Below, piece by piece: positions 2,562-61,387 of a DNA stretch of 64,000 nt (the first letter of the stretch is position 1; each line of letters begins with the position of its first letter). The stretch is from the NCBI GenBank assembly GCA_963809485.1, contig CAWEJX010000016.1, forward strand, positions 64,001 through 128,000, written 5' to 3'. The position numbers and the translations under genes are program-made. The stretch is from an uncultured Acidobacteriota bacterium (GTDB taxonomy: Bacteria > Acidobacteriota > UBA6911). Below the pieces are notes generated by a model that saw only the letters and a program-made list of their open reading frames with translations, had not been told where the DNA came from and did not search any database.

Positions 2562-2911
2562 AGTCAGGTACCTCCGGCAAAGCCGGAGGCTTGAAAGATT
2601 TGTACCGCTCAAAGCGGTTGGAGGAGTTACGCCGGTCTTGAACGCTGACTTACGCGGGCAAAAGCCGATGAGGCGCTTCCGATCCCCGCAGGGGCCAGCG
2701 CTCCGCGCTGGACAGTTTTCTGCGGCGGCACTGTGGCAAGCGCCGTGCGGCAAGGAGATGAAGGGTATGAGAAACCGGGCGTTTGCCACAGTGCCGCCGC
2801 AGAAAACTCCATCGGAAGCGCCTCATCGGCTTTTGCTCGCCGACCCTCGCCGAATAAATCGGCGTTTGTCAGCGCTTTTATCAGCGTTTCTCAGCGTTTC
2901 AAAATACGGAG
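2562..2911 (-). mobile_element. Family A non-autonomous IS200/IS605-like element, copy A1 (lacks the distal hairpin end; contains nested palindrome)
   Basis: AGTCAGGTA-CCTCCGGCAAAGCCGGAGG hairpin, ACCGCTCAAAGCGGT hairpin, 26-bp stems 2658-2683/2811-2836 and 2714-2739/2783-2808; near-identical to other copies. Confidence 0.75.
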
Positions 2912-3150
2912 AATGATCGATTTATGGCAGCAACAAGTCCCGGTAGAGACGACTGAGTCGGTGAAAAACTCAGCCGTCCCTGCCAGGACGGCTATTGCAC
3001 ATTCGCTTCAGATTGACGTGCAGGAACGAAGCGGCTGAGTCACAGGGCGGCGCCTAATTGGCCTAGGGGCGTATTCATTTACGGTGCTCCTAGATCCTCG
3101 CCACCACTTTTGAGACAGTCTCTGGAGAGACGTCCTCGGTAGTTTCAGGC

Positions 3151-3520
3151 CGGAGTCCGCCGTAAGCCGAATTCTGTTTCTCCGCAAAGCGGAGACGGCA
3201 ATCATTCATCTTGTCCCCGGATCACTCCGGAGATCCAGCGGTCTACCCAAAAGCATCGGGCGGGCAGCCCTTATCCTTTTCAGGATGGCTTTTCTATTTG
3301 ACCTTGCTCCGTGTGGGGTTTGCCCTGCCGTCCCTGTTACCAGGGACGCGGTGCGCTCTTACCGCACCTTTTCACCCTTACCTCGCCATGCGAGGCGGTA
3401 TGTTTTCTGTGGCACTTTCCGTAGGGTTGCCCCTCCCTCGCGTTACGAGGCACACTGCCCTGTGGAGTTCGGACTTTCCTCGACCCTTGTTAAAGGGCCG
3501 CGATTGCCTGGCGGACTCCC
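3151..3520 (-). ncRNA. rnpB: RNase P RNA (type A)
   Basis: Minus strand has GAGGAAAGTCCG, GTGCCACAGAAA and ACAGAATTCGGCTTA; the ends pair as P1 (GGAGTCCGCC/GGCGGACTCC). Confidence 0.95.
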
Positions 3521-3586
3521 GCACAGCAATTTTATGCCATAACGCAGGAGAATGAAACAGGATACAGGAGGCAGGCGGGGCCCGGC

Positions 3587-4630
3587 CTAGCCGGCCTTGT
3601 TCTTCTCGGCGGGCGCCGGAACCGGCTTGATAAGTCCCAGCATTTCGCGAAGCTTTACAGCGAGCGTGCCGGCTACTTCCGGGTGCTCCCGGATGAATTG
3701 TTTGGCGTTTTCGCGCCCCTGCCCAAGCCTCTCTCCCTGGTAGGAGAACCAGGCGCCGCTTTTCTCAATCAGCTTTCGCTCCACGGCCTGATCTACGAGG
3801 TCTCCCTCGTAGGATATTCCCTGGTTGTAAAGGATGTCGAATTCTGCTTCGCGGAAAGGAGGCGCAAGTTTGTTTTTGACGATTTTGACGCGCGTCCTGC
3901 TTCCAACGACCAGGTCCCCTTCCTTTATGGAACCTATCCGGCGGATATCCACGCGGATCGATGAATAAAACTTCAGAGCACGGCCCCCGGTGGTCGTTTC
4001 AGGATTGCCGAACATGACGCCGATTTTCTCGCGCATCTGGTTGATGAAAACCATGCACGTATTGGATTTTGAGACGATGGCCGTCAACTTGCGCAACGCC
4101 TGCGACATTAGCCGGGCCTGCAGCCCCGGCAGAGAGTCGCCCATCTCCCCCTCCAGTTCGGCCCTTGGAACCAGAGCCGCCACCGAATCGACGACAAGGA
4201 TATCGATGGCGCCGCTTCGCACGAGCACCTCGGCGATTTCCAGCGCCTGTTCCCCGCTGTCCGGCTGGGACACCAGCAGTTCATCGGTATTGACGCCGAG
4301 CATTTTGGCATAACCGGCATCCATCGCATGTTCGGCATCGATAAAAGCAGCGGATCCTCCGGCTTTCTGCGCCTGAGCGATGGCATGCAGCGCAATAGTG
4401 GTTTTGCCGCTGGATTCGGGCCCGAAGATTTCCACAACGCGCCCCTTGGGAAAACCGCCCACGCCCAAGGCGGCGTCGAAGGATATCGATCCCGTGGAAA
4501 TGGACTGAACGCCCGCAGTATCGATGCGGTCTCCGAGGCGCATAATGGATCCTTTGCCGAATTGCTTTTCAATCTGCGTCAGAGCCATATCGATTGCTTT
4601 GTTTTTATTGATCCGCTCGTCTGCCATCAC
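3587..4630 (-). CDS. recA: Recombinase RecA
   Basis: GPESSGKTT Walker [20 protein letters not shown]. Confidence 0.99.
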
Positions 4631-4899
4631 ATCATCCCTTCCATAGTGGGTTGAATCTCCAAACGACTCTCTACCTATCTAATATGAGAACGAAGATTTG
4701 AGCCATGAAATTTTGCGTCCGGCGCCGCCGGAGAGAACATCCTACCACGACTCGACCCGATATGAAACGGACCGGTACACGCCATGGAAAATACGCCGCA
4801 ACCTGGCATAGAACAGGGTATCGAATGCGACGTCGCTTCCGACGAAGAGACAAAAACATGATAGACTCTTCTCCGGCTTCATTTCGGGAGAGGATCATC

Positions 4900-5703
4900 A
4901 TGGCCGAAGACAGATCACAAAAATGGGCTCTGATTCTGGGTGCTTCCAGCGGGTTCGGCGCGGCCTGCAGCCTCGCGCTGGCTCGCAAGGGCTTCAGCAT
5001 TGTCGGCGTTCACCTGGATCGGAGGGCGACTGCGGCAAATGCCGGGACGGTCGTTTCAGAAATAGAGCGGCTCGGGCAGCAGGCATTGTTCTTCAACGTT
5101 AACGCAGCGGACCCCGAACGGCGCCTCGAGGTAATAGCGAAATGCCGGGAGGTGATCGAGGCGGACCCCTCCTGCCAGGGCATCCGCTGTGTCTTGCACT
5201 CGCTGGCTTTTGGCACCCTGAAGCCCTTTGTCTCCGCAGGGCCGTCGGAACGTATCCGGCCGGCCGATATGAATATGACGCTGGATGTGATGGCTCATAG
5301 CCTTGTGTACTGGATTCAGGATTTGTTTGACGCGGGATTGCTCAAGGCAGGGGCCAGGATTTTTGCGATGACGAGTGCGGGCGGGCGAAGAGTGTGGCCT
5401 GCTTATGGAGCGGTTTCGGCCGCCAAGGCCGCCCTGGAATCCCATGTCCGGCAGCTGGCAGTTGAGCTGGCATCCTACGGCATATCGGTCAATGCCCTTC
5501 AGGCCGGAGTTACGGATACTCCGGCCGCAAGAAAGATTCCCGACAGTGAGCGGATGTTCGCCCGGGCCTTGCAGTCGAATCCCGGCAGGCGCCTGACGAC
5601 TCCCGAGGATGTGGCTGAGCTCCTGGTTGCTCTCACCCTTTGCGAAACAGCCTGGACGACAGGCAACATTATACGCGTCGATGGCGGCGAAGACCTGGTA
5701 TAG
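4900..5703 (+). CDS. SDR oxidoreductase, FabL/enoyl-ACP reductase-like
   Basis: GASSGFG and YGAVSAAKAALES (Yx6K); SD GGAGAGG before ATG 4900. Confidence 0.8.
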   Translation: MAEDRSQKWALILGASSGFGAACSLALARKGFSIVGVHLDRRATAANAGTVVSEIERLGQQALFFNVNAADPERRLEVIAKCREVIEADPSCQGIRCVLHSLAFGTLKPFVSAGPSERIRPADMNMTLDVMAHSLVYWIQDLFDAGLLKAGARIFAMTSAGGRRVWPAYGAVSAAKAALESHVRQLAVELASYGISVNALQAGVTDTPAARKIPDSERMFARALQSNPGRRLTTPEDVAELLVALTLCETAWTTGNIIRVDGGEDLV

Positions 5704-5737
5704 CCATGATGGCGGCCAAGGCGCCAACTGAATTACG

Positions 5738-6131
5738 AGTCAGGCACCTCCGGCAAATCCGGAGGTAAGATTTGAACCGCTCAAAGCGGTTGGAGGAGTT
5801 ACCCGGTCTTGAACGCTGACTTACGCGGGCAAAAGCCGATGAGGCGCTTCCGATCCCCGCAGGGGCCAGCGCTCCGCGCTGCACAGTTTTCTGCGGCGGC
5901 ACTGTGGCAAACACCCGGTTTCCCATACCCTCCTTCTCCCTGCAGCACGGCGCTTGCCACAGTGCCGCCGCAGAAAACTCCATCGGAAGCGCCTCATCGG
6001 CTTTTGCTCGCCGACCCTCGCCGAACAAATCGGTGTTTGTCAGCGCTCTTGTCAGCGTATCTCAGCGTTTCAAATTTCGGAGCGGTCAAACTCTATGAGT
6101 CCGCCGGCAGAGCCGGGGATTTACCAATAGA
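5738..6131 (-). mobile_element. Family A element, copy A2 (complete; central 43-nt loop inverted)
   Basis: Both terminal hairpins and both nested stems are present; loop 5911-5953 is the reverse complement of the loop in A1/A5/A7. Confidence 0.8.
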
Positions 6132-6234
6132 ATGACGAATAACGAAATAAATCACACAGCCCGGTAGGGCGATTCCACGGTTTCACCCGATCATAAATCC
6201 TGTCCAGGCAGTGTGTTTCAATTCGTAATTCGTC

Positions 6235-6263
6235 TTGACTCTATAGCCTGTGATTGGTAACAT
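6235..6263 (+). promoter_or_regulatory. sigma70-like promoter of rpmB
   Basis: TTGACT-17 nt-TAACAT with extended -10 TG. Confidence 0.55.
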
Positions 6264-6288
6264 TTGCCGCTCTGAGGGGAGTAGGAAA

Positions 6289-6480
6289 ATGCCGATGCAG
6301 TGTTATGTTTGTGCCAAAAGCCCGATCTTCGGTCATACTGTTTCCCACGCTCACAATGTTCGTTCGCGGAAGTTTTATCCGAACCTCCAGAGCGTACGCA
6401 TCCTCGAAAACGGCACCGTAAAGCGTGTACGGGTCTGCACCCGTTGTCTGAGGTCCGGAAAAGTCCGGAAAGCCATCTAA
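6289..6480 (+). CDS. rpmB: 50S ribosomal protein L28 (Zn-ribbon type)
   Basis: CYVC..GHTVSHAHN..PNLQ..VCTRCLRSG. Confidence 0.95.
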   Translation: MPMQCYVCAKSPIFGHTVSHAHNVRSRKFYPNLQSVRILENGTVKRVRVCTRCLRSGKVRKAI

Positions 6481-6854
6481 GCGACTGCAACCGCCTCGAT
6501 CTCCAGCAAAACTCCCATGGGCAGGCGTGCCACCTGAACGGTGGATCGCGCCGGCTGAGCCTCGGGGAAATATCCCGCATAGATCCGGTTAAACTCTGGG
6601 AAATCATCAAGATTGGACAGGAAAACTGTGGTTTTGACGACCTTTGACAGTTTGCTTCCCGCCGCGTCGAGGATGGCGGAAAGGTTGCGCATCACCTGGT
6701 GAGTCTGCGCCGCGATTCCGCCTTCGGCAATTTGCGTGCTCTCCGGCCGGACGGGGATCTGACCTGAAACAAACACAAAGCCATTAGCCCGGACAGCCTG
6801 AGAATACGGACCAATCGGCCCCGGCGCATTCTTGGTTTCAATAATCTCCCGCAT
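6477..6854 (-). CDS. ridA: RidA/YjgF family enamine/imine deaminase
   Basis: APGPIGPYSQA, SGQI, PARSTVQVARLP, EIEAVA; SD GGAG before ATG 6854. Confidence 0.9.
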   Translation of the reverse strand: MREIIETKNAPGPIGPYSQAVRANGFVFVSGQIPVRPESTQIAEGGIAAQTHQVMRNLSAILDAAGSKLSKVVKTTVFLSNLDDFPEFNRIYAGYFPEAQPARSTVQVARLPMGVLLEIEAVAVA

Positions 6855-6894
6855 ATATGGCTCCCACGAGTCGAATCGATATTGGATCTTTAAC

Positions 6895-7175
6895 AACCTC
6901 CGCGAAGCCGGTCGCTTTAAGGTTGCCGCTCCTCAAAGAGGCCTGTCCGCAACCGACAAAAGCTAAAAACGGTTTCACACGCAATAAGCATCTCTAAATC
7001 ATTCTTGAACCGCAGAATATCGAATAATGAATGTAGAATTTCGAAGTTCTTCTGCGGTTCGATATTCGGCATCCCGCAGTGCTTATGCTCTCGGTTGTTG
7101 TCGGAACCCCGGGGGAAAGGCATGCTTCAGTATTTGTCAAACCGAGGCTGCTCACCGGCAGAGCCTGAGAATCTC
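6895..7175 (-). mobile_element. Family B IS200-like non-autonomous element, copy B1
   Basis: Collinear with 19476-19722: CCTCAAAGAGG, TCACACGCAATAA, GAACCGCAGAAT..TTCTGCGGTTC, GGGAAAGGC.TGCTTCAGTATT.GTCAAAC, CACCGGCAGAGCC. Confidence 0.65.
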
Positions 7176-7250
7176 GCAACCGATGAATACTCCACCCGCA
7201 GAGCGGGTGGTATCAGGAAGCCCCCAGGACGGGGGCAGCGAGATCAACAC

Positions 7251-7369
7251 GAATGTCGAATAATGAATTTCGAATTATGAAGTATTGGAACGCTTGCATA
7301 TTTTGCGATGCCCGCCTCTCCAGACATCTAGTTCGACATTCGACATTCATCATTCGATATTCATCATTC
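7251..7369. repeat. Inverted heptamer tandem repeats (GAATRTC-type / ATTCGAC-type)
   Basis: GAATGTC GAATAAT GAATTTC GAATTAT ... TTCGAC ATTCGAC ATTCATC ATTCGAT ATTCATC. Confidence 0.8.
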
Positions 7370-7456
7370 TCTTTTCTGTTTCTTCAGGACGCACCCCGGA
7401 ACGGTAGAGAGTTTTCGAGTTACGCCGCCATAGGCGGCGGTTTACCATAATGCGAA

Positions 7457-9622
7457 TTAGGGCAGCTGGGCCACCCGCTCGACTTCCTGGATCCCGCGGA
7501 TGGTTTTCAGTCCCTGGATGACTTTCTGCAGATGTTTTACATCCGCTATGTCGACAGTGATCTCGACGACACCCTTGCCGGAATTGGCATCGCTGAATGA
7601 GCGGGATTCCCGGATGTTGGTTTTAAGGTTTGAGATGGCCGAAGTGATATCCGCAAGAATCCCCTGCCTGTCCTCTACCGAAATGGAGAGGCGCACGCCA
7701 AAAACCTCGTCGCCCGGCGCGTCGACCCATTCCACATCCGTGATACGATCCGAACCGAAAAAACTGGCGAGGTTCGGGCACGTGGTAGTGTGAACGGAAA
7801 TTCCCTTCCCCCGGGTTATATACCCGACGATCTCGTCCCCGCGTATGGGATTGCAGCATTTTGCGCGATAAACCAGCAAGCCGTCCTGGCCTTTGACAGT
7901 TATGGCGGAATCCCCCTGGCCTAAGACTCTGCGGACCACCGACGGCAGGCCGGAGGGTTTGGGCCTTTCTTCGGACGGCGGAGTGAGATCCGGGAATAGC
8001 GGGGAGAGGATTTCACGGGGCGAGATTTTGCCGAAACCGACTGCAGGGTAAATGTCTTCCGGCCGCTGCAGCCCATTCTGCGCAAGGACATTCGGAAGCT
8101 GAGTCATGAGCAGCACCTTTTTCCAGGTGGTTTTGAATTTCCTCGATTCCTTCTCCATCAGCTTCTTGCCCAGCTCCGCTGCGTCTTCCTTCTCTTTCTG
8201 ATTGATCCAGTGCTTGATTTTCCCGCGGGCACGAGCTGTTTTTACGAAAGATAGCCAGTCGCGGCTTGGAGATGCATCCTTGGCGGTGACAACCTCAACG
8301 ACCTCGCCGTTTTTGACCTTGTGCCGCAAAGGCACGATCCTCGTGTTAACCTTGGCTGCGACGCAGTGGTGCCCGACTTCGGTGTGAATGGCATATGCGA
8401 AGTCGATTGGGGTGGCATCGCGCGGAAGCGTGATTACCTCGCCCTTGGGGGTGAAACAATACACTTCGTCCGGATACAGGTCGATTTTCAGGTTGCTGAG
8501 GAACTCCCTCGGATCGCTGATTTCCTCCTGGGACATGATGAGCTGCCGCAGCCGCCGGAATTGCTCCTCTCCCTCCACCGTGCCGAGTTTTCCTTCCTTG
8601 TACTTCCAGTGGGCGGCGATGCCCTCCTCGGCGATGCGGTGCATTTCGTCGGTACGGATCTGAATCTCGAAAGGCTGTCCATTGCGGCCGATTACGGAGG
8701 TATGCAGCGACTGGTACAGGTTGGGACGCGGGATCGCGATGTAGTCCTTGATGCGGCCCGGCACGGGCTTCCAGAGGTTATGAAGAATGCCCAGGATCGT
8801 GTAGCAGTTCCTCACGGAATCAGTGATCACCCGTATGGCGATGAAATCAAAGACCTCATCGATCGTAATCTTTTGCCGCTTCATCTTGCTGTAGACGCCG
8901 TAAATGCGCTTGGTGCGGCTTTCCAGCCGGGCGGGGATTTTGTGCTCTCCGAGTTCTTTCGCGATGATACGCTCCGCCTCGTGGATGAAATCCTGCTTCA
9001 CGGCCCGGCGCGATTCAATTTGGGAAACGGTATTCTGGTATGCGACGGCATCCAGGAAGCTGAAGGCGAGGTCCTCGAGTTCTCCGCGGATTTTGGCCAT
9101 TCCTAACCGATGGGCCAGCGGCGCGTAGATTTCCATGGTTTCCAGCGAAATTCTTTCCCGCCGGTCGGGTGGAAGGTACTGCAGGGTGCGCATATTGTGC
9201 AGGCGGTCCGCGAGTTTAACAAAGAGCACGCGGACGTCTTTGACCATGGCGAGAAGCATCTTCCGGAAGTTCTCGGCCTGCTTCTGATGCCGGGAGGCCA
9301 ACTGAACCTGTGCGATTTTGGTCACGCCGTCGACCAGCAGGTAGACCTCATCGCCGAACTGCCTTCGGAGCTCCTCCGGCGACATGAGGGTATCTTCCAG
9401 GACGTCGTGCAGCAAACCCGCGGTAACGGTCACAACATCCAGTTTAAGCTCGGCAAGAATATTGGCGACCTCGAGCGGATGCGTGAGATACGGCTCCCCG
9501 TTCATCCGGACCTGCCCCTTGTGATATTTGGCCGAAACCACATATCCCCGCTGGATCATCTCCATGGGGGCATCCGGATGATACCGTCCTATCTTCTCCG
9601 CAAGGTCCTCATACCGTATCAT
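7457..9622 (-). CDS. relA: Bifunctional (p)ppGpp synthetase/hydrolase RelA/SpoT
   Basis: HD motif LHDVLEDT, synthetase YQSLHT/EIQIRT, TGS, CCNPIRGD and ACT domains. Confidence 0.97.
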   Translation of the reverse strand: MIRYEDLAEKIGRYHPDAPMEMIQRGYVVSAKYHKGQVRMNGEPYLTHPLEVANILAELKLDVVTVTAGLLHDVLEDTLMSPEELRRQFGDEVYLLVDGVTKIAQVQLASRHQKQAENFRKMLLAMVKDVRVLFVKLADRLHNMRTLQYLPPDRRERISLETMEIYAPLAHRLGMAKIRGELEDLAFSFLDAVAYQNTVSQIESRRAVKQDFIHEAERIIAKELGEHKIPARLESRTKRIYGVYSKMKRQKITIDEVFDFIAIRVITDSVRNCYTILGILHNLWKPVPGRIKDYIAIPRPNLYQSLHTSVIGRNGQPFEIQIRTDEMHRIAEEGIAAHWKYKEGKLGTVEGEEQFRRLRQLIMSQEEISDPREFLSNLKIDLYPDEVYCFTPKGEVITLPRDATPIDFAYAIHTEVGHHCVAAKVNTRIVPLRHKVKNGEVVEVVTAKDASPSRDWLSFVKTARARGKIKHWINQKEKEDAAELGKKLMEKESRKFKTTWKKVLLMTQLPNVLAQNGLQRPEDIYPAVGFGKISPREILSPLFPDLTPPSEERPKPSGLPSVVRRVLGQGDSAITVKGQDGLLVYRAKCCNPIRGDEIVGYITRGKGISVHTTTCPNLASFFGSDRITDVEWVDAPGDEVFGVRLSISVEDRQGILADITSAISNLKTNIRESRSFSDANSGKGVVEITVDIADVKHLQKVIQGLKTIRGIQEVERVAQLP

Positions 9623-9779
9623 GGGTTAATCGTTACTCTTGAATGATTATAGAATACGGAATGACTGCCATGTAAGCTTGCTTTTGGCCCCAGCCTGCAT
9701 TCCTTGCAGGCTTTCGGCCGCCGCCGCCTATCCGTGCAAACCCGCCGGGACATTCGACTTGCACTAGACAGTACCCCTG

Positions 9780-9945
9780 AGTCACGAATATCGAATTTCG
9801 AATGTCGAATGCCGAACCGCAGAAGCGCTTCGAAATTCATCATTCATTATTCGACATTCTGCGGCTCAGCAATAGGCAAAGAATATTTATTGCGCATGAC
9901 ACTTCATTAGTCTTTCCCCGATTGCGATCAGGCCCCTTTGAGCGG
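9780..9945 (+). mobile_element. Family B element, partial copy B3 in opposite orientation, with heptamer hairpin
   Basis: Reverse complement reads CCGCTCAAAGGGGCCTGATCGCAATCG..TCATGCGCAATAAA..GAGCCGCAGAATGTCGAATAATGAAT..TTCTGCGGTTCG. Confidence 0.6.
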
Positions 9946-9973
9946 AGACGAGGGACCACATGTCCGCAGGCAC

Positions 9974-19475: not shown

Positions 19476-19722
19476 ATCTTCCGGCAAGAGCTGGAGGCTT
19501 GACGGTTGCCGGCCCCTCAAACAGGCCTGATCGCAATCGATAAGATTAACACCTGTTTCACGCGCAATAAACATCCCTAAGGCTTTTTGAACCGCAGAAT
19601 GTCGAAGTCAGGCCCAACTTCTGCGGTTCGACATCCCATATTCAGCATTCCATATTCGGGAAAGGCCTGCTTCAGTATTGGTCAAACTGAGGCTGCCTCA
19701 CCGGCAGAGCCGGTGGATCTCC
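19476..19722 (-). mobile_element. Family B element, copy B2
   Basis: CTTCCGGCAAGAGCTGGAGG and CACCGGCAGAGCCGGTG hairpins; collinear with B1. Confidence 0.65.
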
Positions 19723-19761
19723 CGTCGGACTGGGCTGCTGTCCGGCTGTCCGGCGGGGCCG

Positions 19762-22736: not shown

Positions 22737-22749
22737 AAAAATGCCGCAT

Positions 22750-22966
22750 GTCAGGCACCTCCGGCAAAGACGGAGGCTTGAAAGATTGGAACCGCTCAAA
22801 GCGGTTGGAGGAGTTACGCTGGTCTTGAACGCTGACTTACGCGGCAGATTCGCCGACAAATCGACGTTAGTCAGCGCGTTTGTCAGCGTATCTCAGCGTT
22901 TCAAAATACGGAGCTGTCAAACGCTATGAGTCCCCCGGCAGAGCCAGGGTTTTACCAATAGAATTA
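22750..22966 (-). mobile_element. Family A element, copy A3 (both ends, no nested palindrome)
   Basis: Same ends as A2 but TTACGCGG-CAGAT-TCGCCGAC replaces the ~180-bp insert. Confidence 0.8.
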
Positions 22967-23114: not shown

Positions 23115-23120
23115 GTGGGT

Positions 23121-23300
23121 AGCCCCTGCAATGTTGGTGATGGCAAACATTATTTGAGCCAACATTCTATTTGATGGGAGCCCGTATCATGCTGCCGTGT
23201 GCGAGCTTTTCCTTCGGGAACTTGATTGCCTGACGCAGCCTGTAGGACACCCCCTTGGTAACAAGGTTCAAATAGATATGCCACACGGCGGCGCGGGGGC
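23121..23300 (+). ncRNA. ssrS: 6S RNA
   Basis: ~180-nt rod: GCCCCTGC/GCGGGGGC closing stem, ATTTGAGCC/GGTTCAAAT pairing, central bubble, U-tract after; adjacent to ymdB and zapA. Confidence 0.8.
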
Positions 23301-23336
23301 ACTTTTTTTTGCGCTTCCTTGGAAAAACGGAGCGAA

Positions 23337-31382: not shown

Positions 31383-31457
31383 TGGTAGGCGCGAGCGGAT
31401 TTGAACCGCTGACCCCTTCCGCGTCAAGGAAGTGCTCTCCCCCTGAGCTACGCGCCT
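31383..31457 (-). tRNA. tRNA-Val (GAC)
   Basis: AGGCGCGTAGCTCAG..CTTCC-TTGACGC-GGAAG..GGTTCAAATCC..CGCGCCTACCA; 75 nt with encoded CCA. Confidence 0.97.
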
Positions 31458-32893: not shown

Positions 32894-33137
32894 AGTCAGG
32901 TACCTCCGGCAAAGCCGGAGGCTTGTAAGATTTGAACCGCTCAAAGCGGTTGGAGGAGTTACGCCGATCCTAAACACCGACGCACGCTGAACGGACGCCG
33001 ACCCACGCCGAAAAAAAATTAATATATTTTTTTCAGCGTATGTCAGCGTCATGTCAGCGTACGTCAGCGTTTCAAAATACGGAGCTGTCAAACTCTTTGA
33101 GTGCTCCGGCAGAGCCGGGGGTTTACCCATGCAATTA
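32894..33137 (-). mobile_element. Family A element, copy A4 (both ends; ACGCYGA/TCAGCGT repeat cargo with AT-rich loop)
   Basis: Both terminal hairpins; the interior differs from A1/A2. Confidence 0.8.
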
Positions 33138-42252: not shown

Positions 42253-42653
42253 GTCAGCTGCTTCCGGCAAAGCCGGAGGCTTGAAAGATTTGAACCCCTC
42301 AAAGCGGTTGGAGGAACTACGACGGTCTTGAACGCTGACTTACGCGGGCAAAAGCCGATGAGGCGCTTCCGATCCCCGCAGGGGCCAGCGCTCCGCGCTG
42401 GACAGTTTTCTGCGGCGGCACTGTGGCAAGCGCCGTGCGGCAAGGGGATGAAGGGTATGAGAAACCGGGCGTTTGCCACAATGCCGCCGCAGAAAACTTC
42501 ATCGGAAGCGCCTCATCGGCTTTTGCTCGCCGACCCACGCCGAACAAATCCGCGTTTGTCAGCGCTTTTGTCAGCGTTTCTCAGCGTTTCAAAATACCGA
42601 ACCGTCAAACTCTTTGTGTCGCCCGGCAGAGCCGGGATTTACCAATGTAATTA
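42253..42653 (-). mobile_element. Family A element, copy A5 (complete with nested palindrome)
   Basis: Near-identical to A1 plus the distal end hairpin. Confidence 0.8.
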
Positions 42654-42681
42654 TCTCCCGCTTCAACCGATTGCCTTCGGT

Positions 42682-42785
42682 ATCGGCGTTCGTCGGCGTT
42701 TTTCAGCGCCTGTCAGCGTCAAAGGATCCTGGAGCTGCCAGACTCTGCCGGTCCCCGGCGAAGCTGAGGGATTACCGATGGATTT
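42682..42785 (-). mobile_element. Degenerate family A distal end in tandem with A5
   Basis: TCGGCGT repeats, GGAGCTGCCAGACTCT, CCCCGGCGAAGCTGAGG, TTACCGATG. Confidence 0.5.
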
Positions 42786-43488
42786 ATCTGAAATGCAGGA
42801 CCGGATCCTTGATTTCCAGGATTCCCTTGATGTGGAAAGCTTCTCCCTTTTTCTTCCCGATGAGAGTTCCATAAAACGAATGGATGGTTTCCACGTGAGC
42901 CAGAAAGTCGGGCTGGCTCAGGGTTGTGGACGGCTCGCGGCTTGAAGGATCGAACAGCTGGGAACGATGCGCAGCGATGGCGGCAGTGCGCTGCTCGATG
43001 TGATCCGAAACATCGACAATAAAGCTGGGGATCGTGTGAGGGGGGACCTTGAAGTACAGGATGGCCCTGGGCCGATGGCGCTCCTGTCCCGTTTTGATCT
43101 TCGCCAGCCCGGAATGATGGACGGCCTCCGCAACCAGCCTGCTCGTGTGGGCATGATCCGGATGCCTGTCATCCCAATAATGCGTCAACACCAGGTGAGG
43201 CCGGTATTTTCTCAACAGCCGGATAACCTTAAGCCTTGCCTGGGGTGTCACGGAGACCTCGCCATCGGATAATCCGAGGTTTTCCCGCACTTTCACCCTG
43301 AGTATTTCCGCGGCCTTGGCCGCCTCCTGCCTGCGCAGCGCAGCCGTCCCCCGAGTGCCCAGTTCTCCGCGTGTCATGTCTACAATGCCGGTCGAGTAGC
43401 CGAGGGCGGCCATTTTGGCCATGGTTCCGCCGGCAAAAAGCTCCACATCGTCAGGGTGCGCTCCAAAAGCCAATACATCCAGTTGCAT
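42784..43488 (-). CDS. bshB1: Bacillithiol biosynthesis deacetylase BshB1
   Basis: AHPDDVE, GELGTRG, RHPDH, HRSQ. Confidence 0.9.
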   Translation of the reverse strand: MQLDVLAFGAHPDDVELFAGGTMAKMAALGYSTGIVDMTRGELGTRGTAALRRQEAAKAAEILRVKVRENLGLSDGEVSVTPQARLKVIRLLRKYRPHLVLTHYWDDRHPDHAHTSRLVAEAVHHSGLAKIKTGQERHRPRAILYFKVPPHTIPSFIVDVSDHIEQRTAAIAAHRSQLFDPSSREPSTTLSQPDFLAHVETIHSFYGTLIGKKKGEAFHIKGILEIKDPVLHFR

Positions 43489-54005: not shown

Positions 54006-54010
54006 GGCGT

Positions 54011-54715: not shown

Positions 54716-55149
54716 CCCGATTCGATCCCCCCTGTAATCCGTAATCGCTATAACGCAACCGCCAGGCTCCTGCATGGCAGCAGCTTTCGGCAGAACTTTC
54801 ATTAAGTCCCGGTGAATACAGCTATCCAGAGCCGCCGGGAAGCCCGGCTGTGCGGCGGAAACACCGATACAGCCGCGGAGACTTTATCATAACGATTACG
54901 GAGACGGACATGGCTAATTTCCGGTCGGGCCGGAGACGCTGTCCATCGCATCCGGCCCGCCATGCGGATGCGTTTGCAGCATCTTTCCCATCACGGCCCG
55001 ATCCAAATGCGGCATAGCAAGAAACAGAAGTTATATTGGATAACGCCCGGGATTGGGGGCTCCAAAGGCGTCCGGAAGGTTTCCAGCCCGCACCGCATGC
55101 TTCCGGCAATTACCGCCCCGGGGAATCCCCCCGGGAGGCAACCGCGCTG

Positions 55150-55521
55150 TCACTTCCTCCCCGGAATGATTTCGATCCAATATCCGTCGGGATCCTCGAT
55201 GAAGTAGATGCCCATCCCCGGATTTTCATGGCAGACGCAGCCCATTTCCTTGTGACGGGCAAAGGCGGCGTTGTAGTCATCGACGGCCAGCGCAAGGTGG
55301 AATTCGTTATCTCCCAGGTTATAGGGCTCCTTTCGGTCCCTGAGCCAGGTCAGCTCCAGCCTGTGTGCAGTCTTTTCGTCGCCGAGAAATACGAGTGTGA
55401 AGCTCTTGTCGGCAGCGTCCCTGCGCCGCGTTTCGACGAGGCCCAGCGCGTTGCGATAGAACTCCAGGCTTTTTTCAAGGTCCAGGACGTTAATGCTGTT
55501 GTGGTTAAACTCAAATTTCAT
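55150..55521 (-). CDS. VOC family / lactoylglutathione lyase-like
   Basis: H..DLEKSLEFY, LELT, HLA, FIEDPDGYWIE. Confidence 0.88.
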   Translation of the reverse strand: MKFEFNHNSINVLDLEKSLEFYRNALGLVETRRRDAADKSFTLVFLGDEKTAHRLELTWLRDRKEPYNLGDNEFHLALAVDDYNAAFARHKEMGCVCHENPGMGIYFIEDPDGYWIEIIPGRK

Positions 55522-55740
55522 ATTTCCTTCTCCGCGCTCATCTTGAGCAGGTCGGCATCCCAGCCAGTCCGGGATTTGCCTATGGAACAAAACCATTCTC
55601 CGTATTCCGACAGACTCAATCAAGGCACGGATGCATTTTAGATTGCACGCTTCAAAGGTCACCCCATTTTGCCAAAAAAAGATTTCTTCCACCCATTCCG
55701 GCGTTAAAATAGACAGGAACCTATACTGGGGCGTCTTCCT

Positions 55741-55914
55741 ATGATCGTTCAAACCCTTGTGGAGTACGGCGCGCTTCAATCGATTTCTGCGGCGTTCGCC
55801 AGCGCTTATTATCGCGCTGAGAGTTTTCTGGTATCGGTCAATCCCAGATACTATCTTATCCTGGCGCTCGCGGTTCTGGCATGGATCATTCTGACCCGCC
55901 GACGCGCGCATTAA
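55741..55914 (+). CDS. Small 57-aa membrane protein (absent from ORF track)
   Basis: MIVQTLVEYGALQSIS..YYLILALAVLAWIILTRRRAH; C-terminal TM helix plus Arg tail. Confidence 0.55.
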   Translation: MIVQTLVEYGALQSISAAFASAYYRAESFLVSVNPRYYLILALAVLAWIILTRRRAH

Positions 55915-55994
55915 GATCCGGGAAAGGCTCGCGAAAACAATCGGGCGTGATGAAGTTGTTTTCCCGGGATTGCACTGCCGGGCTTGGGGAACAT

Positions 55995-56630
55995 ATGCAG
56001 GATTTGACCGGTTTGCGCGAATCGATTCTTACGGGAAATTCCGCACGGGCCATAGAAGAGGCACAAAAAGCACTGTGCGATGGCGCGAATCCGGCCGACA
56101 TCGTCAGCCGGGGCATCGGCCCGGCAATGGGTGAGGTGGGAAGGCTGTTCGAAGCCGGCGAGTGCTTCGTCCCCGAACTGCTCATGGCGGCAAAATGCAC
56201 GAAGGAAGTCTTCCGCATCCTGCGCCCCCTGCTCGCGCAAACGGGAGCCAAACCCAACGGCTGCGTGGTGATGGGAACCGTGCGCGGCGACCTGCACGAC
56301 ATCGGCAAGAACCTCGTGGCGGCAATGCTCGAGGGAGGCGGATTTGAGGTCACGGATCTCGGCGTCGATGTCCCAGCCGAGAGGTTCGTTGCCGCCGTGC
56401 GGGACCGACAGGCTCATATCGTGGGCCTTTCGGCTTTGCTCACCTCGACCTTGCCTGCCATGAAAGCAGTAGTCGAAGCCTTCCGCGCATCAGGGATGCG
56501 CGATAGCATCAAAATAATGGTAGGAGGGGCGCCGGTAACGCAAGAATACGCAAACGCAATCGGCGCCGATGGGTATGGGGAAAGCGCTGCCGCGTCCGTG
56601 GATCTGGCGCGCCGCCTGATTGGCGGATGA
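55995..56630 (+). CDS. Corrinoid (cobalamin-binding) methyltransferase protein
   Basis: FVPE cap domain, GDLHDIGKN (DxHxxG), SALL, VGGA. Confidence 0.93.
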   Translation: MQDLTGLRESILTGNSARAIEEAQKALCDGANPADIVSRGIGPAMGEVGRLFEAGECFVPELLMAAKCTKEVFRILRPLLAQTGAKPNGCVVMGTVRGDLHDIGKNLVAAMLEGGGFEVTDLGVDVPAERFVAAVRDRQAHIVGLSALLTSTLPAMKAVVEAFRASGMRDSIKIMVGGAPVTQEYANAIGADGYGESAAASVDLARRLIGG

Positions 56631-56640
56631 CACACCAAAA

Positions 56641-56685
56641 AGTCAGGTGCCTCCGGCAAAGCCGGAGGCTTACCGATGTAATTAT
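56641..56685 (-). mobile_element. Family A collapsed mini-copy A6 (single hairpin with both outer tails)
   Basis: AGTCAGGTG-CCTCCGGCAAAGCCGGAGG-CTTACCGATGTAATTA. Confidence 0.75.
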
Positions 56686-56700
56686 GGGATTGAGCCTGCG

Positions 56701-57732
56701 ATGGATGATCTGCAGTGGAGCACCCTGATTTCTGTGGTTCACGGCGAACGGCTCGCCGCGCCGCCTGCCGGTTTCATAATCGACAGCCCCTGGCTCCCCA
56801 ATTGGGCCGGTCACACAATCCTGGATTATTTTACCGACGAGCGGATCTTCCTGGAGGACAACCTGAAGGCCATACGGGCCTTTCCTCAGGCCCTCATTCT
56901 GCCGGGCTTCTGGTCCGAATACGGGATGTGCACCGAACCCTCCGCTTTTGGTTCCGTATCCACCTGGGAGGAGAACGAATTTCCCTTCGCCCAAAAAGTG
57001 CTTCAGTCGGCGGCGGACGTGGAATACTTACGCCAACCCGATCCACGAAAGGACGGCCTGCTCCCTTTTGTCATCAAGCGCCTCAAACACCTGCAGCCTG
57101 AAATCGAAAAGGCCGGTCACAAAATCCGTTTTGCGGTCGCGCGCGGCCCGCTGAACATCGCAACGTTTTTGATGGGGGCGACCGAATTCCTGACTGCGCT
57201 AAAAACGAATCCCGAATGCATGCATCGCCTGCTGACCGTCATCACGGACTTTCTCGTGGATTGGGTCCGATGGCAGCGCCAGTGCTTTCCCTCGATTGAC
57301 GGCATCCTTCTGCTGGACGACATCGTGGGTTTCGTGAGCCGGCAGGATTTCGAGGTTTTCGGTTTCCCCCACCTGAAAAGGATTTTCAGCGCGGATGTAA
57401 CCCTTAAATTCTTCCATAACGACGCCCCGTGCAAAGCTTGCGCGCCCCTGCTGCCGGAAGCCGGCGTCAACTTGCTGAATTTCGGTTTTCAGCACACCAT
57501 TGCGGACATGAGAGTGTGGACCGGGAACAGGGTTGCCCTGATGGGCAACATACCACCCCGCGATGTCCTGGCCGCCGGAACGCCGGCGGACGTGGAGCGG
57601 TCGGTTGCAGGCATGCTCAATGCCCTGGAAGATCGATCGCGCCTGATTGTTTCATGCGGCGGCGGCATGCCCCCCGGCGCACCGGCGGAAAACATACGGG
57701 CTTTGATAGCAGCATCGGCGCAATCGAGGTAG
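56701..57732 (+). CDS. UroD/MtaA-CmuA family corrinoid-dependent methyltransferase
   Basis: EPSAFG, GPLNIA, FHND, GNIPP, SCGGG; follows the corrinoid gene. Confidence 0.8.
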   Translation: MDDLQWSTLISVVHGERLAAPPAGFIIDSPWLPNWAGHTILDYFTDERIFLEDNLKAIRAFPQALILPGFWSEYGMCTEPSAFGSVSTWEENEFPFAQKVLQSAADVEYLRQPDPRKDGLLPFVIKRLKHLQPEIEKAGHKIRFAVARGPLNIATFLMGATEFLTALKTNPECMHRLLTVITDFLVDWVRWQRQCFPSIDGILLLDDIVGFVSRQDFEVFGFPHLKRIFSADVTLKFFHNDAPCKACAPLLPEAGVNLLNFGFQHTIADMRVWTGNRVALMGNIPPRDVLAAGTPADVERSVAGMLNALEDRSRLIVSCGGGMPPGAPAENIRALIAASAQSR

Positions 57733-58230
57733 CGTTATTCCGAAAGATACGGGTTGGTGCAGAACTCCGCCAAATTATTTCCATCGGGATCCGCGCAAAA
57801 TAACAATTTCCAGCTTGTGCGGGAAAAATCACCGGGGTAAAAACTTTGTTGTGTCCGCGCTCCCTTCCCGGGTGTAGAATCCTGCCGGCGCAGCCCAATC
57901 ATTCGTTCTCGCACCTCATGAAGCTGGGCTGCACGCTCCATTAAGCACCTGAACATGTTGCCCAAATGTGAGGAATCATCCTGATTCCCGCACGGATGGG
58001 TCGAGCGGACGGCAGAACGCGGCGATGCCGATGAAATCTAAATCATTTATAAAATGCTCATGAAGATACGGGGAGAGAATCCATGCGAAAACTGTTGGCA
58101 CCAAGGTGCCTTATGGCTTGGGCGATCCCTGGGCAGGTCCCCTGTTCAAGCAGCTGTGCATCAGCTGGATTCAATGCTGAAACTCATACGGCTTCTGTGA
58201 AAAAGCGCTACCTTTAAAGGAGGAATAATA

Positions 58231-58665
58231 ATGGCGACATCAAAGTTTGCAAAATACGTCCGGAAAGGGGTGATGACCAACCCGACTCCGCATCCCGAGG
58301 TTTCGGCGCCGCGTCTGGGACTAAAGAGCGGAGAAGGTTTCGGCAACGTCCCGTTCTCGATGAGTTGGTGGGCTATCACCGAACCTTTTGTAATGGTGAC
58401 GGATTGTCACAAACACGATTTTGACCAGTTCATCATATTCGCCGGAGGGGACATCACCAATATGCCCAGTATAGGCGGTGTGGTGGAGTTTGGCTTGAGT
58501 GAAGACGGCAAGGACATAGAGACTCAGGTCATCACGGAAGCCACGATGATTTTCCTCCCTGCCGGCATGTTTCACGGACCGCTGAATTTCAAGAAGATCA
58601 ATGATCCTAAAAAGCCCATCCTGTTCCACGATCTCTTCTTCTCGCCCGAATACAAGCGGGTATAG
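58231..58665 (+). CDS. Cupin-like hypothetical protein
   Basis: HKHDFDQ..PAGMFHGP; SD AGGAGG. Confidence 0.7.
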   Translation: MATSKFAKYVRKGVMTNPTPHPEVSAPRLGLKSGEGFGNVPFSMSWWAITEPFVMVTDCHKHDFDQFIIFAGGDITNMPSIGGVVEFGLSEDGKDIETQVITEATMIFLPAGMFHGPLNFKKINDPKKPILFHDLFFSPEYKRV

Positions 58666-58728
58666 AATTTGCGCGAGCCGCAATGCTTCGGGCTGCAGGG
58701 AGCTTGAACCGCTGAACCGCTGCAAACA

Positions 58729-58834
58729 ACGGATGCGGTGACAGATCAGGGCCGCTGACGAACGCCGGCGGGCGCTTTAGGACCAGCGTTCGTCAGGGCT
58801 TTGATCCGTGCATCCCAGCACCCCCGGATCCGTC
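58729..58834. repeat. Imperfect long hairpin (ACGGAT/ATCCGT; CTGACGAACGC/GCGTTCGTCAG)
   Basis: Inverted repeats between convergent genes. Confidence 0.5.
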
Positions 58835-58921
58835 AAAAATCCCCAATCGCCGGCCCCGGCGGGTCCTCTGCAACCCCGGGGGTAGCCGTTGTTGCGGTGG
58901 ACACCGAACCCGCTCAACCGT

Positions 58922-59120
58922 TCACGGCTTTTGGTTTACGCCATGGTCCATGAACTCTGCCCAGAATCCATCCGGGTTGGCCATAAAAAATGACCGGGTC
59001 GCCGGACCGATGAATACCGGACCTCCGGTTGCGCTCAGGGTATGCAGGCCGGCCTCCTTCATGCGCGGCATAACGATATCCACATCCCTGGACATGAACA
59101 AAATGTTCGTGGTTCCTTTA
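58922..59120 (-). pseudogene. C-terminal fragment of a VOC-family gene
   Basis: RDVD..RMKEAG..RSFFMANPDGFWAEF with no N-terminal half. Confidence 0.55.
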
Positions 59121-59129
59121 TAGAAATTC

Positions 59130-60770
59130 CTATCCTTCTCCAGCGATGCTTTTTCCAACCAGATACCCGAAGGTAACGCAGTTGGCCCCCAGGTTCTGGC
59201 CGGGCTCCAGGAATGTGTAGATGTTGGCATACATGTCGCCGACGATGGTACCGACAGCGTACAAGCCTGGAATCACTTGCTCGTTTTTATCGAGCACCTG
59301 CATTTTGAGGTTCGTGCGCAGCCCGCCTGAAATAAAAAGCAGCCACGGCAATTTGCTCGACGCCCCATAAAATGGAGGCGTGTCGACAGGAATGAGCAGA
59401 TCCTTTCTTTTGTAGTATTCGGTGTCGATCCCCGTCCTGCAGAAGCCATTGTACTTTTCGACGGTCGCCTTCAGCGGGGCAGCCGGCAAACCCAGCTTCC
59501 CGGCGAGTGCGTCGAGGGTGTCGGCCTTTACCATCGTGCCCGACTTCACATTCGTTTCCCATTCCTCGATAACCGTCTGGATGGGGATTTGAGGAGGACC
59601 GCCGTAGTAGCTTCCGAAAGGAGTCCAGGGAGCGGCTCGTTCGGCATACGCGCGATCCCAGAGGGCGAATATTGTTGTATCGGGCTGCTGCATCTGCGCG
59701 ATCCCGGCAAAGGGCCCCAGCCTGTCCTCGTTGCCGTATCGAACGGCGTTCCTGTTCACGAGCAAACCTGTAAAGGCTCGATAGGGCTGCGTTTCGGGGC
59801 CAACCTGTGCCAATACGTTCGGCGCATTGGGTACTGTCTTCTGCCACGCCGCGCCCACCCATAAAGCCATCTTGTGCCCGTCGCCCTTATAAACGCCTCC
59901 GCCTCCCTTCACCAAAGGCAGCACCCAGGGGCAGTATTTCTCTACCATCTCCTCGTCCGTGAAGTCTCCGGTGGCGAGGACGACGGCTTTTGTGCCGATG
60001 TATTTCGTGTAAGTTCCTCCGGGTGTTTTTGCAATGACGGCGCTCACCCGCCCGGTGTTGTTGTCTTCGCGTACGAGCTGCACGGCGGTTGTGCTGTAAT
60101 GGATTTTCACTCCCCGATCCTGGGCGGTTTTGGCCAGGGTGTTCACGACAAGCTGCTGGCCGCGGCCCGCGGCTTTGATATCGCCCCCGAGCCAAGAGTG
60201 CGAACCCGGATACATCGTCATGGGGCCCTCCGGGTCAGTGTTGCCCAGCTCGATGACAGTCTGATAGCCCGTCGCCTCCATTTTGTCTATCAGCCAGTCC
60301 ATGGCCTCGCCACTCCTGTTGGCCCAGAGCAGCCATTTGTCCTGGTCAACCCTGAATGAGTGGCATTTCATTTCTTCTTTGAATTCCCTGCCCACGTCGG
60401 ATTTGATCCCCAGTTTGCGGGTTGCTTTTGTATTGAAGGCGTGGTTGGATCCGCCACGCGCTACAGGGGCTGAACTGGCGGCGATAACCACAACTTTGGC
60501 CCCGCCTTCAACCGCGGCATTGGCACAAACCAAACCTGAGGTCCCCGCACCGATTACCACAATCTCGGCAGTAATGGTTTCTTTGATATCGCCGGCGGGT
60601 ATCGGCGGTGGGGGGACTTCAAAAGAATATGTCCTGGACTGAGCTGCCGGCGAAGCAGCGGGGCTTGTGCCAATCCATGGGCTGCCCGCCGCGGCAACCA
60701 TACCCGCGCCTGCCGTTGCGTTTTTCACAAACCTTCTGCGAGTCATCCCTCTTCCGGTTTTATTTGGCAT
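59130..60770 (-). CDS. Tat-exported FAD-binding oxidoreductase (flavocytochrome c/fumarate reductase flavoprotein-like)
   Basis: TRRRFVK Tat motif, GAGTSG, VLATGDF, GDG, IPGLYAVG. Confidence 0.85.
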   Translation of the reverse strand: MPNKTGRGMTRRRFVKNATAGAGMVAAAGSPWIGTSPAASPAAQSRTYSFEVPPPPIPAGDIKETITAEIVVIGAGTSGLVCANAAVEGGAKVVVIAASSAPVARGGSNHAFNTKATRKLGIKSDVGREFKEEMKCHSFRVDQDKWLLWANRSGEAMDWLIDKMEATGYQTVIELGNTDPEGPMTMYPGSHSWLGGDIKAAGRGQQLVVNTLAKTAQDRGVKIHYSTTAVQLVREDNNTGRVSAVIAKTPGGTYTKYIGTKAVVLATGDFTDEEMVEKYCPWVLPLVKGGGGVYKGDGHKMALWVGAAWQKTVPNAPNVLAQVGPETQPYRAFTGLLVNRNAVRYGNEDRLGPFAGIAQMQQPDTTIFALWDRAYAERAAPWTPFGSYYGGPPQIPIQTVIEEWETNVKSGTMVKADTLDALAGKLGLPAAPLKATVEKYNGFCRTGIDTEYYKRKDLLIPVDTPPFYGASSKLPWLLFISGGLRTNLKMQVLDKNEQVIPGLYAVGTIVGDMYANIYTFLEPGQNLGANCVTFGYLVGKSIAGEG

Positions 60771-60929
60771 ATATCCTCTCAACTGGGATATTGGTAATTG
60801 TTTGGAAAGAAACGCTGCAACACAAACACATTACCTACGGTCCTATATTGGCTAGGAACCTATCAGCCGCTCCAGGAACTGTCGATAGCAAACATAGTTC
60901 TCGAAAGGCATATCCTTGCGCACTCGGGC

Positions 60930-61169
60930 ATCATTGCCACCAGATTTTTCCCAATATCGTGCGGGTCGCCCTGAACCGTCCCGATGACTACGCAGCCCTG
61001 AGGCCGAATCTCCGCGTTCTCCAGATGTGGGCGAAGTGCGGACAGCCCCGCCTTCATGGCGTGGCCGGCCATCAGTATTTCGGGAACGAAGAAAGTCCCC
61101 TGCGCATACAGCCGGCCCACCTCGTCCATAGCCGCTATGAGGCCGTTGGGGAGAATGTCCCGGGCATCC
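60930..61169 (-). pseudogene. Internal fragment of a corrinoid-protein gene
   Basis: GLIAAMDEVG..FVPE..GTVQGDPHDIGKNLVAMM, truncated at both ends; abuts A7. Confidence 0.8.
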
Positions 61170-61387
61170 GCGGCACTGTGGCAAGCGCCGTGCGGCAAGG
61201 AGATGAAGGGTATGAGAAACCGGGCGTTTGCCACAGTGCCGCCGCAGAAAACTCCATCGGAAGCGCCTCATCGGCTTTTGCTCGCCGAACAAATCGGTGA
61301 TCAGCGCTTTTATCAGCGTTTCAAAATACGGAGCTGTCAAACTCTTTGAGTCCCCCGGCAGAGCTGGGGATTTACCAATGTAATTAT
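61170..61387 (-). mobile_element. Family A element, copy A7 (truncated inside the inner stem)
   Basis: Starts at GCGGCACTGTGGCAA, loop identical to A1, ends CCCCCGGCAGAGCTGGGG-ATTTACCAATGTAATTA. Confidence 0.8.

Follow-up and report, generated by a model that had tools for sequence, protein, structure and literature searches.

The 64,000-nucleotide stretch analysed here (hereafter the window, at G000:C16:64001-128000, where G000 is the assembly of its uncultured Acidobacteriota host) carries several short, gene-less, hairpin-rich repeats, which raises the question of what these repeats are and how they came to be scattered along it. An earlier note, made from the letters of the window, had taken them for transposase-less elements of the IS200/IS605 type, mobilised in trans and carrying interchangeable cargo. 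We conclude, with a probability of roughly nine in ten, that they are palindrome-associated transposable elements (PATEs), that is, gene-less derivatives of an IS200-group insertion sequence (IS) of the IS200/IS605 family that are moved in trans. The host assembly comprises 6.04 Mb in 21 contigs and is 95.7% complete. For comparison we used G006, a sister species about 90% identical to G000 in syntenic DNA, and G133, which belongs to another genus of the same taxonomic family. Left and right refer below to the plus strand of the window, on which the earlier note was written; the functional, sense strand of the element is the minus strand, and LE and RE denote the left and right ends of the IS on that sense strand. 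The names 'proximal' and 'distal' that the note gave to the two ends are reversed relative to the IS, its right end being the LE and its left end the RE.

We cut the copy at 5738-6134 into four modules: the left end (A), a large palindrome (B), a stretch of TCAGCG repeats (C) and the right end (D). When up to three mismatches were allowed, the left-end hairpin motif CCTCCGGCAAAGCCGGAGG matched the window 10 times, compared with 0.05 matches expected from shuffled sequences. Six of these matches lie at left ends (2571, 5747, 22758, 32903, 42261 and 56650), and the other four are three palindromic echoes on the minus strand and one match on the right-end hairpin. The second hairpin, ACCGCTCAAAGCGGT, matched the window five times (0.14 expected), and the right-end hairpin 19 times (3.5 expected). 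Motif counts, direct reading and a genome-wide blastn-short scan, which recovered the same seven copies in the window, all confirmed the copies listed in the note, at 2562, 5738, 22750, 32894, 42253, 56641 and 61170, all of them on the plus strand as the note read them. The two relics that it had reported are also real, in degenerate form, at about 42676-42786 and at 63177-63340. Its placement of the starts was right to within one base, the G of GTCAGG lying one position further right at 5739, 32895 and 56642. Across the whole genome, the scan found about 280 left ends and 249 right ends, which fell into 320 clustered loci; together these span 78 kb and make up 1.3% of the 6.04-Mb genome. Among the architectures, the most frequent are ABCD (144 loci), ACD (55), ABC (24), CD (13) and AD (10); at many of the loci scored as lacking D, this module has merely diverged or been interrupted by an insertion.

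The boundaries of the element are sharp. At 239 left ends, conservation sets in abruptly at GTCAGG, where the preceding base is A in 195 cases and T in 31, and at 241 right ends it stops abruptly after TTACCAAT[GT/AG]AAT[T/C]A. Outside these boundaries the flanks are random, no position there exceeding about 0.1 bit of information, and neither a terminal inverted repeat nor a target duplication was found across the 239 left and 241 right ends, which bears out what the note had observed on the copies in the window. Because the two ends share no repeated core sequence, we dropped an integron attC site, a Xer/dif-type site and a group II intron as candidates.

The G133 genome contains three IS200 copies in which the ends of the family surround an open reading frame (ORF) for a 155-amino-acid Y1 TnpA. 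At two places, matches to the left and right ends lie about 570 bp apart, and a third left-end match marks another copy. The TnpA is 100% identical in all three copies, the ends are identical over the stretches read, and these ends match the left and right modules of the G000 family at 88%. The ORF, on the reader's minus strand, matches PF01797 (Y1_Tnp) with an E-value of 2e-37 and scores 139 bits on NF033573 (IS200/IS605 transposase; cut-off 55), while its score on the model for repetitive extragenic palindrome (REP)-associated tyrosine transposases (RAYTs) is 39.8 bits, below the cut-off of 80. Its translation shows an HVH motif and the tyrosine of GYYVST. On the reader's strand, the three copies run A|GTCAGTGACCTCCGGCAAAGCCGGAGGCTTGAA..ACCGCTCAAAGCGGT.., antisense tnpA, ..GTCAAACTCTGTGAGTCCCCCGGCAGAGCCGGGGGTTTACCTCATTAA, followed by ATTA, ATTA or ATCA, and since tnpA is antisense there, the sense strand of the IS must be the complement of the reader's strand.

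These copies bear directly on the earlier note, which had proposed looking for a copy that encloses a Y1 tnpA: such copies are present in G133, and none is present in the host assembly. The note had also named the absence of any HUH transposase with these ends, in the genome or in relatives, as grounds for giving up its reading; since a Y1 tnpA lies between the same ends in a relative, these grounds fall away. Its description of the repeats as probable non-autonomous elements of the IS200/IS605 type, with subterminal hairpins and mobilisation in trans, is supported by the same finding. As is characteristic of PATEs, the family in G000 (320 loci) has kept an LE and an RE, both homologous to the ends of the G133 IS, and has no transposase gene.

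The LE recurs in other taxa. A family-type LE (TAAT, about 12 nt, GGTAAA, the CCCCCGGC hairpin and ACTC..GTTTGAC) precedes tnpA at nine of 63 full-length IS200 loci in other taxa, including Desulfobacterales metagenome-assembled genomes (MAGs), a Desulforhabdus, an Ignavibacteriota MAG and a Nannocystaceae MAG. Among the listed relatives of the TnpA from other species, identity does not exceed 72%, and they are informative only on the conservation of the LE. Among 30 species genomes of the host genus, the family is abundant only in G000 and G006 (84-95% identity), and a few others have single short left-end matches. Some match was present in 13 of 137 genomes of the class, including G127, G130 and G133 (second genus, same taxonomic family).

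On the sense strand, a copy follows a target TAAT and begins with the LE, made up of a 12-nt linker, a hairpin CCCCCGGC-TCT-GCCGGGGG and then ACTCAAAGAGTTTGAC. Next comes an interior of about 300 nt that forms a foldback, whose base carries three phased CGCTGA repeats, and last the RE, made up of a hairpin ACCGCTTTGAGCGGT, a hairpin CCTCCGGC-TTT-GCCGGAGG and an 8-nt linker TACCTGAC. The LE hairpin CCCCCGGC/GCCGGGGG and the RE hairpin CCTCCGGC/GCCGGAGG are both subterminal and stand in direct orientation on one strand, and the linkers measure 12-13 nt at the LE (16-17 nt with the target) and 8 nt at the RE. This asymmetry agrees with the linker rule of the IS200/IS605 family, given in an excerpt of PMC3597680, by which the left linker is longer than the right and the right one is 8 nt. 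A Y1 HUH TnpA supplied in trans would bind both hairpins on the single-stranded lagging-strand template and would cut after TAAT and after TGAC, freeing a single-stranded circle with the predicted RE-LE junction ..CCTGAC joined to TACATTGG... The circle would then re-insert 3' of another TAAT without duplication ('peel and paste'). On every sequence-level test that gave a clear reading, the family falls within the IS200 group of IS200/IS605 as a non-autonomous PATE.

The target can be read from both the genomic copies and the empty sites. The tetranucleotide at 250 genomic right ends is ATTA in 163 cases, ATCA in 39 and ATTG in nine. The G133 copies, otherwise alike, differ in these last four bases, which must therefore be flank; the shared distal end described in the note thus stands, but its last four bases, ATTA, belong to the target and not to the element. 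Read in this way, the sense-strand target is TAAT (TRAT), with insertion 3' of the target and without duplication, and the element ends in TGAC. As the base after the tetranucleotide is T in 82% of copies, the cut can equally well be read one base further, as TAATT and TGACT. In the part of PMC5027513 that deals with this point, the left end is said always to insert 3' to a tetra- or pentanucleotide target.

To find empty sites, we compared 40 element-bearing loci of G006 with the G000 genome by their flanks, and the window copies with G006. About 17 of the G006 loci are filled in both species and 10 are empty in G000, two of these by paralogy only, and G006 in turn lacks the element at the sites of two window copies (22750 and 61170). 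At seven of the 12 informative empty-site junctions, ATTA stands directly after the left flank (window 22750, window 61170, L045, L050, L029, and L027 + L049 (vs C9:29257)), and at one (L052) the junction is ATTCA. One metagenome contig (depth 5, shorter side 24 letters) joins window position 22740 to 22966, reading left flank, ATAA, right flank; no sequencing run holds half of the words of the query, and the best holders, at 0.22, come from relatives in soil and wetland metagenomes. The cleavage motifs suggested in the note, TAAT and TGAC on the minus strand, agree with the empty sites and with the IS copies. The note had also named, as telling against its reading, copies fixed at orthologous sites in distant relatives; between G000 and G006, the insertions are polymorphic. 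Compared with its nearest neighbour, a copy is 95.7% identical at the median and 99.5% at the maximum, and this high identity, together with insertions that differ between the species, indicates that the family moved after G000 and G006 split. Separately, we observed that arrays of heptamer-like repeats (TGACGAA, TTACGAA, ACGAATG) often adjoin the elements, for example at 6135-6160 and 7250-7370 of the window and in many other flanks; these arrays contain the TAAT/ATTA target and may be insertion hot spots.

The orientation of the copies follows replication. Counted as left ends on the plus and minus strands, copies are strongly skewed within contigs, with 64:3 on C20, 0:19 on C6, 19:1 on C1, 14:1 on C12 and 9:0 on C16. 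On contig C7, dnaA (at 454563) lies between the last plus-strand copy (440 kb) and the first minus-strand copy (483 kb), with 16 plus and two minus copies to its left and 12 minus and two plus copies to its right, and the IS-sense strand occupies the lagging-strand template for 28 of the 32 copies. Orientation agrees with the sign of the GC skew (±50 kb) at 240 of 319 loci, a test that is noisy because the skew is weak. A bias for the lagging-strand template has been published for IS608, ISDra2 and, in silico, other family members (PMC5027513, in excerpt). As an observation apart, C8:0-200000 holds 11 plus and 11 minus elements; this stretch may correspond to the replication terminus or to a segment that has been rearranged.

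We then asked what lies between the ends. The sense-strand interior is one long imperfect hairpin with a 184-bp palindrome at its tip, and the three phased CGCTGA repeats near the LE pair with GTCAGCG..TTCAAG near the RE. A full copy folded as single-stranded DNA reaches -132 kcal/mol (z = -17), and a consensus fold of 73 near-full copies, computed with RNA energy parameters, has 100 pairs, with 98.9% of cells paired and nine pairs changed on both sides. Sorting 319 loci by markers gave about 72 with the full palindrome and its loop in orientation 1, about 30 with the loop in orientation 2, about 63 with the outer arms only, 53 with both ends and the repeats and no palindrome (further palindrome-less loci lack one end), 13 with an alternative interior and five of a 43-nt single-hairpin form. 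All five single-hairpin forms have the junction GGAGG-CTTACC, and one of them, C20:734862, occupies the same site as a full element in G006 and therefore arose in place. The same A-B-C-D architecture recurs in another genus, in G127, with the arms kept, a different loop and one arm change compensated on the opposite side. The interior is thus mainly one conserved foldback of about 300 nt eroded by nested deletions, and not a set of exchangeable modules. What is left of the 'interchangeable cargo' of the note is the one alternative interior (13 of 319 loci), the rest being mainly deletion derivatives of one foldback.

Could the palindrome instead be a guest? On this explanation, a separate foldback miniature inverted-repeat transposable element once landed in an ends-only PATE, and the cargo is a nested transposon. 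The loop does occur between the arms in both orientations (about 72 and about 30 loci), palindrome-less copies are common (ACD, 55 loci), and other small elements do nest within the family. However, the palindrome is essentially confined to the family (palindrome-only loci number one in 320) and always sits at the same internal position, pairing continues from it outward into the TCAGCG-repeat and RE-proximal regions, G127 has both the architecture and the arms in common with G000, and the partial forms resemble deletions between short direct repeats such as GCCGA. We therefore consider a composite origin improbable. The strength of the fold, with paired-side changes at nine of 100 pairs, and the location of all nine window loci between flanking long ORFs or at their edge might suggest something else again, namely structured non-coding RNA genes or cis-regulatory or terminator elements whose spread was incidental to their function. 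Yet no Rfam family fits the element: a scan of the window at gathering thresholds returned only RNase P, 6S and tRNA elsewhere, and a permissive scan of one copy gave only chance matches far under threshold. Moreover, orientation tracks replication and not the neighbouring genes, which occupy both strands, and no T runs follow the hairpins of the window copies. We find such an origin barely credible.

Hundreds of intergenic hairpin repeats linked to a Y1 HUH enzyme are also typical of REPs and bacterial interspersed mosaic elements with their RAYTs (REPINs), and the hairpins could in principle be REPs spread and maintained by a single-copy domesticated RAYT and not by an IS200. RAYTs, too, are Y1 HUH enzymes, the hairpin repeats on which they act number in the hundreds, and G000 has a RAYT-like gene (C15:225627) with hairpin repeats of its own on either side. 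Those repeats, however, are a different family of 47-48 nt. The enzyme found between the ends of the family described here is a multi-copy IS200 TnpA by NCBIfam cut-offs (139 bits on the IS200 model vs 39.8 on the RAYT model, where 80 are needed), and its three copies encode identical TnpA, like an active IS. The elements themselves are asymmetric LE...RE units with a target motif, unlike REPINs, and not inverted REP doublets. A REP/RAYT-type system is for these reasons very improbable, and PATEs derived from an IS200-group IS remain the reading that we favour.

Several observations weigh against that reading. No tnpA with the ends of the family was found in the G000 assembly or in G006, and none of the four Y1 genes in G000 is flanked by these ends. 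The closest of the four belongs to an IS200 at C6:298499, which is 51% identical to the G133 TnpA and whose frame is broken by an in-frame TAG where PKY is conserved; its LE is laid out as in the family but the stem differs (CGCCGCC), and its RE has diverged. The orthologue of this IS200 in G006 has an open frame and an interrupted RE hairpin. The nearest resident IS200 is only 49-51% identical and is damaged in both hosts, and in G000 its hairpin stems differ from those of the family. The other three Y1 genes are the RAYT-like gene on C15 within its own 47-48-nt repeats, a truncated copy at C20:492361 and a distant gene of 293 amino acids at C20:1133001, flanked by other direct repeats. Four of the 12 empty-site junctions do not show the expected target: three are AT-rich or shifted and ambiguous (L023, L035 at 690, and L054), and one, L033 vs C19:47205, reads GTCA and is contrary. 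Contig C8 is mixed in orientation (23:14), mostly within a 0-200 kb stretch of flat GC skew. TAAT/TGAC could not be matched to TAAA/TCAA, the four bases on the 5' side of each hairpin, by any simple scheme of complementarity, and across the 250 genomic right ends the TAAT/TGAT variation covaries with no internal position. The known network between guide and cleavage site includes non-canonical contacts, which are invisible in sequence alone. Finally, what the sequences show is the anatomy, the target motif, the lack of duplication, the orientation tied to replication, a cognate autonomous IS in a relative and insertions that are polymorphic between species; from these we infer the chemistry, with excision, the circle junctions and mobilisation in trans.

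A source of transposase was sought in G000 in further ways. Pairing all neighbouring partial loci within 8 kb and reading five gaps yielded no autonomous copy in G000, and there was no TnpB match in this genome. The sole pair of left and right ends in G000 that encloses a long ORF proved to be an unrelated IS4-like insertion, not a tnpA. The copies may have been moved by a cognate IS, since lost or unassembled, or else cross-mobilised by the related resident IS200.

The family can be placed among known systems. PATEs were reportedly named in Haloquadratum walsbyi. With the IS200 group, and with the mechanism of IS608 and ISDra2, the family shares a Y1 HUH TnpA in its autonomous relative, direct subterminal hairpins, and the absence of inverted repeats and target duplication. 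According to excerpts of two accounts of the group, the likeness extends to an LE that abuts a fixed tetranucleotide, a left linker longer than the 8-nt right linker and a bias for the lagging-strand template (PMC5027513, PMC3597680). Unlike the IS200 group, the G000 copies have no tnpA, and their target is TAAT(T), whereas that of IS608 is TTAC. Like PATEs as described in parts of PMC10055086 and PMC7290912, the elements are short and protein-less, have kept both ends (LE and RE) of an IS200/IS605 element and presumably depend on a transposase supplied in trans. The same partial accounts give one copy of a PATE-like sequence in Halanaerobium hydrogeniformans and several in Geobacillus stearothermophilus among nearly 50 tnpA-less elements (PMC7290912, PMC10055086); the roughly 320 loci of G000 far outnumber these described cases. 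They also differ in their interior, which is a conserved foldback of about 300 nt with phased TCAGCG repeats and not a remnant of tnpB or omega-RNA, and in that no cognate tnpA is left in the G000 assembly. The PATE as a kind of mobile DNA is already known; the present family is remarkable for its scale, for an orientation clearly linked to replication, for its conserved foldback and for the absence of a resident cognate transposase.

The nine loci of the window are listed in Table 1. At the sites of the 2562, 5738 and 32894 copies the element is absent in G006, where the intergenic DNA is too diverged or has been replaced for the junctions to be read. The orthologue of the 42253 copy in G006 carries an ORF-less insertion of about 0.94 kb in the loop of the RE hairpin; we considered this interior of about 1 kb as a possible tnpA and rejected it, as it is an ORF-less insertion within a hairpin loop. 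The single-hairpin form at 56642 sits between two co-oriented genes, and at 61170 the truncation on the RE side also removed about 130 bp of flank that G006 still keeps. The window also encodes a class A RNase P RNA (3148-3519, minus strand), a 6S RNA (23120-23303, plus strand) and a tRNA (31386-31457, minus strand), and two PATE copies lie within about 240 bp of the RNase P and 6S RNA genes, respectively.

Table 1. Copies and relics of the PATE family in the window (window coordinates; strand is that of the IS sense).
Element	Position	Strand	Structure	Adjoining target	Remarks
PATE without IS left end (class ABC)	2562..2911	-	RE (two hairpins), full foldback, TCAGCG repeats; stops after ..CAAAATACGGAG		
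Full-length PATE	5739..6131	-	RE, foldback (loop orientation 2), TCAGCG repeats, LE	ATGA, 6132-6135	
PATE without foldback tip	22750..22962	-		ATTA, 22963-22966	Site empty in G006 and in one metagenome contig
PATE, alternative-interior subfamily	32895..33133	-		ATTA, 33134-33137	Subfamily of 13/319 loci genome-wide
Full-length PATE	42253..42649	-	Loop orientation 1	ATTA, 42650-42653	
Degenerate relic	42676..42786	-	TCAGCG repeats and LE-like end		Directly downstream of the 42253 copy; also in G006
Short single-hairpin form	56642..56680	-	RE linker, RE-type hairpin, LE linker	ATTA, 56681-56684	43 nt including target
PATE truncated on RE side	61170..61382	-		ATTA, 61383-61386	Target present in the empty G006 site
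Old, strongly diverged relic	63177..63340	-	Second hairpin, TCGGCG/TCAGCG repeats, LE-like hairpin		

Other mobile elements and repeats were seen alongside the family. An IS with a 767-amino-acid transposase (DruA, Tn5 DNA-binding and Tn5 dimerisation domains) is present at G000:C4:338403-340790 (L036), C7:51364, C7:2386 and C20:242056. Its left end lies within the loop of the family's LE hairpin at all four G000 copies found, and a 9-bp duplication, GGCAGAGCC, flanks the single copy of which both ends were read. Short derivatives without an ORF and with similar ends (CCTGACTGCGGGACAC...) occur in G006, where three PATE copies carry them in hairpin loops and the resident IS200 carries one in its RE hairpin (loci L024, L033, L040 and L074). 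This IS thus has the look of a transposon with a specific preference for hairpins that belong to another transposon.

A second, low-copy PATE family is represented at window 7183-7459, with three near-full copies in G000 and at least four in G006, and is oriented as the main family is. Its ends match the resident IS200 type, with an LE hairpin CGCCGCC..GGCGGCG, then GTTTACCATAATGCGA and ATTA, and an RE hairpin CCACCCGC..GCGGGTGG. A third repeat family, at window 6985-7182 and 19585-19725, gave 60 matches in all, of which 22 span 70% or more of the query; a related hairpin, GTCAAAC..CACCGGCAGAGCCGGTG, forms its end, and it has the same strand bias per contig (for example, 6:1 on C20). At G000:C15:225627-225971 (L002), the RAYT-like Y1 gene encodes 153 amino acids and lies between arrays of a triple-hairpin repeat (GGCCGCGTAGCGGCC, GCCCGGCCTTTCAAGGCCGGG, CCCGTCGCGTGAGCGACGG), a 47-48-nt piece of which recurs at dozens of genome sites; this layout is RAYT/REP-like. 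The distant Y1_Tnp protein at G000:C20:1133001-1133330 (L004; 293 amino acids, E 3.5e-10) is bracketed by direct repeats CTAAAGATTTATCG[C/T]GGTCCGACCCCAAT, and three diverged paralogous neighbourhoods of 2.4 kb (75-81% identical) lie elsewhere in G000.

For the annotation of this genome, our results mean that one IS200-derived family accounts for about 1.3% of its length and for a large part of its intergenic repeats, and that its hairpins should not be mistaken for terminators, small RNAs or REP elements. For transposon biology, the family offers a large natural sample of IS200-group insertions with a clear TAAT target and an orientation switch that brackets dnaA, and it is an example of a non-autonomous family that persists and moves once a cognate transposase can no longer be detected in the host assembly. 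From the conserved foldback also comes a testable idea of what makes a PATE successful. An unlikely possibility is that the foldback is an adaptation and not junk: zipping up on single-stranded DNA, it would juxtapose LE and RE and so boost the excision and pasting of a gene-less element by a scarce, trans-acting and possibly non-cognate TnpA far beyond that of an ordinary IS, and the same folding would have the 43-nt form as its minimal end product. If this is true, a self-zipping foldback would account for the rise of the family to about 320 copies and for its survival beyond its own transposase.

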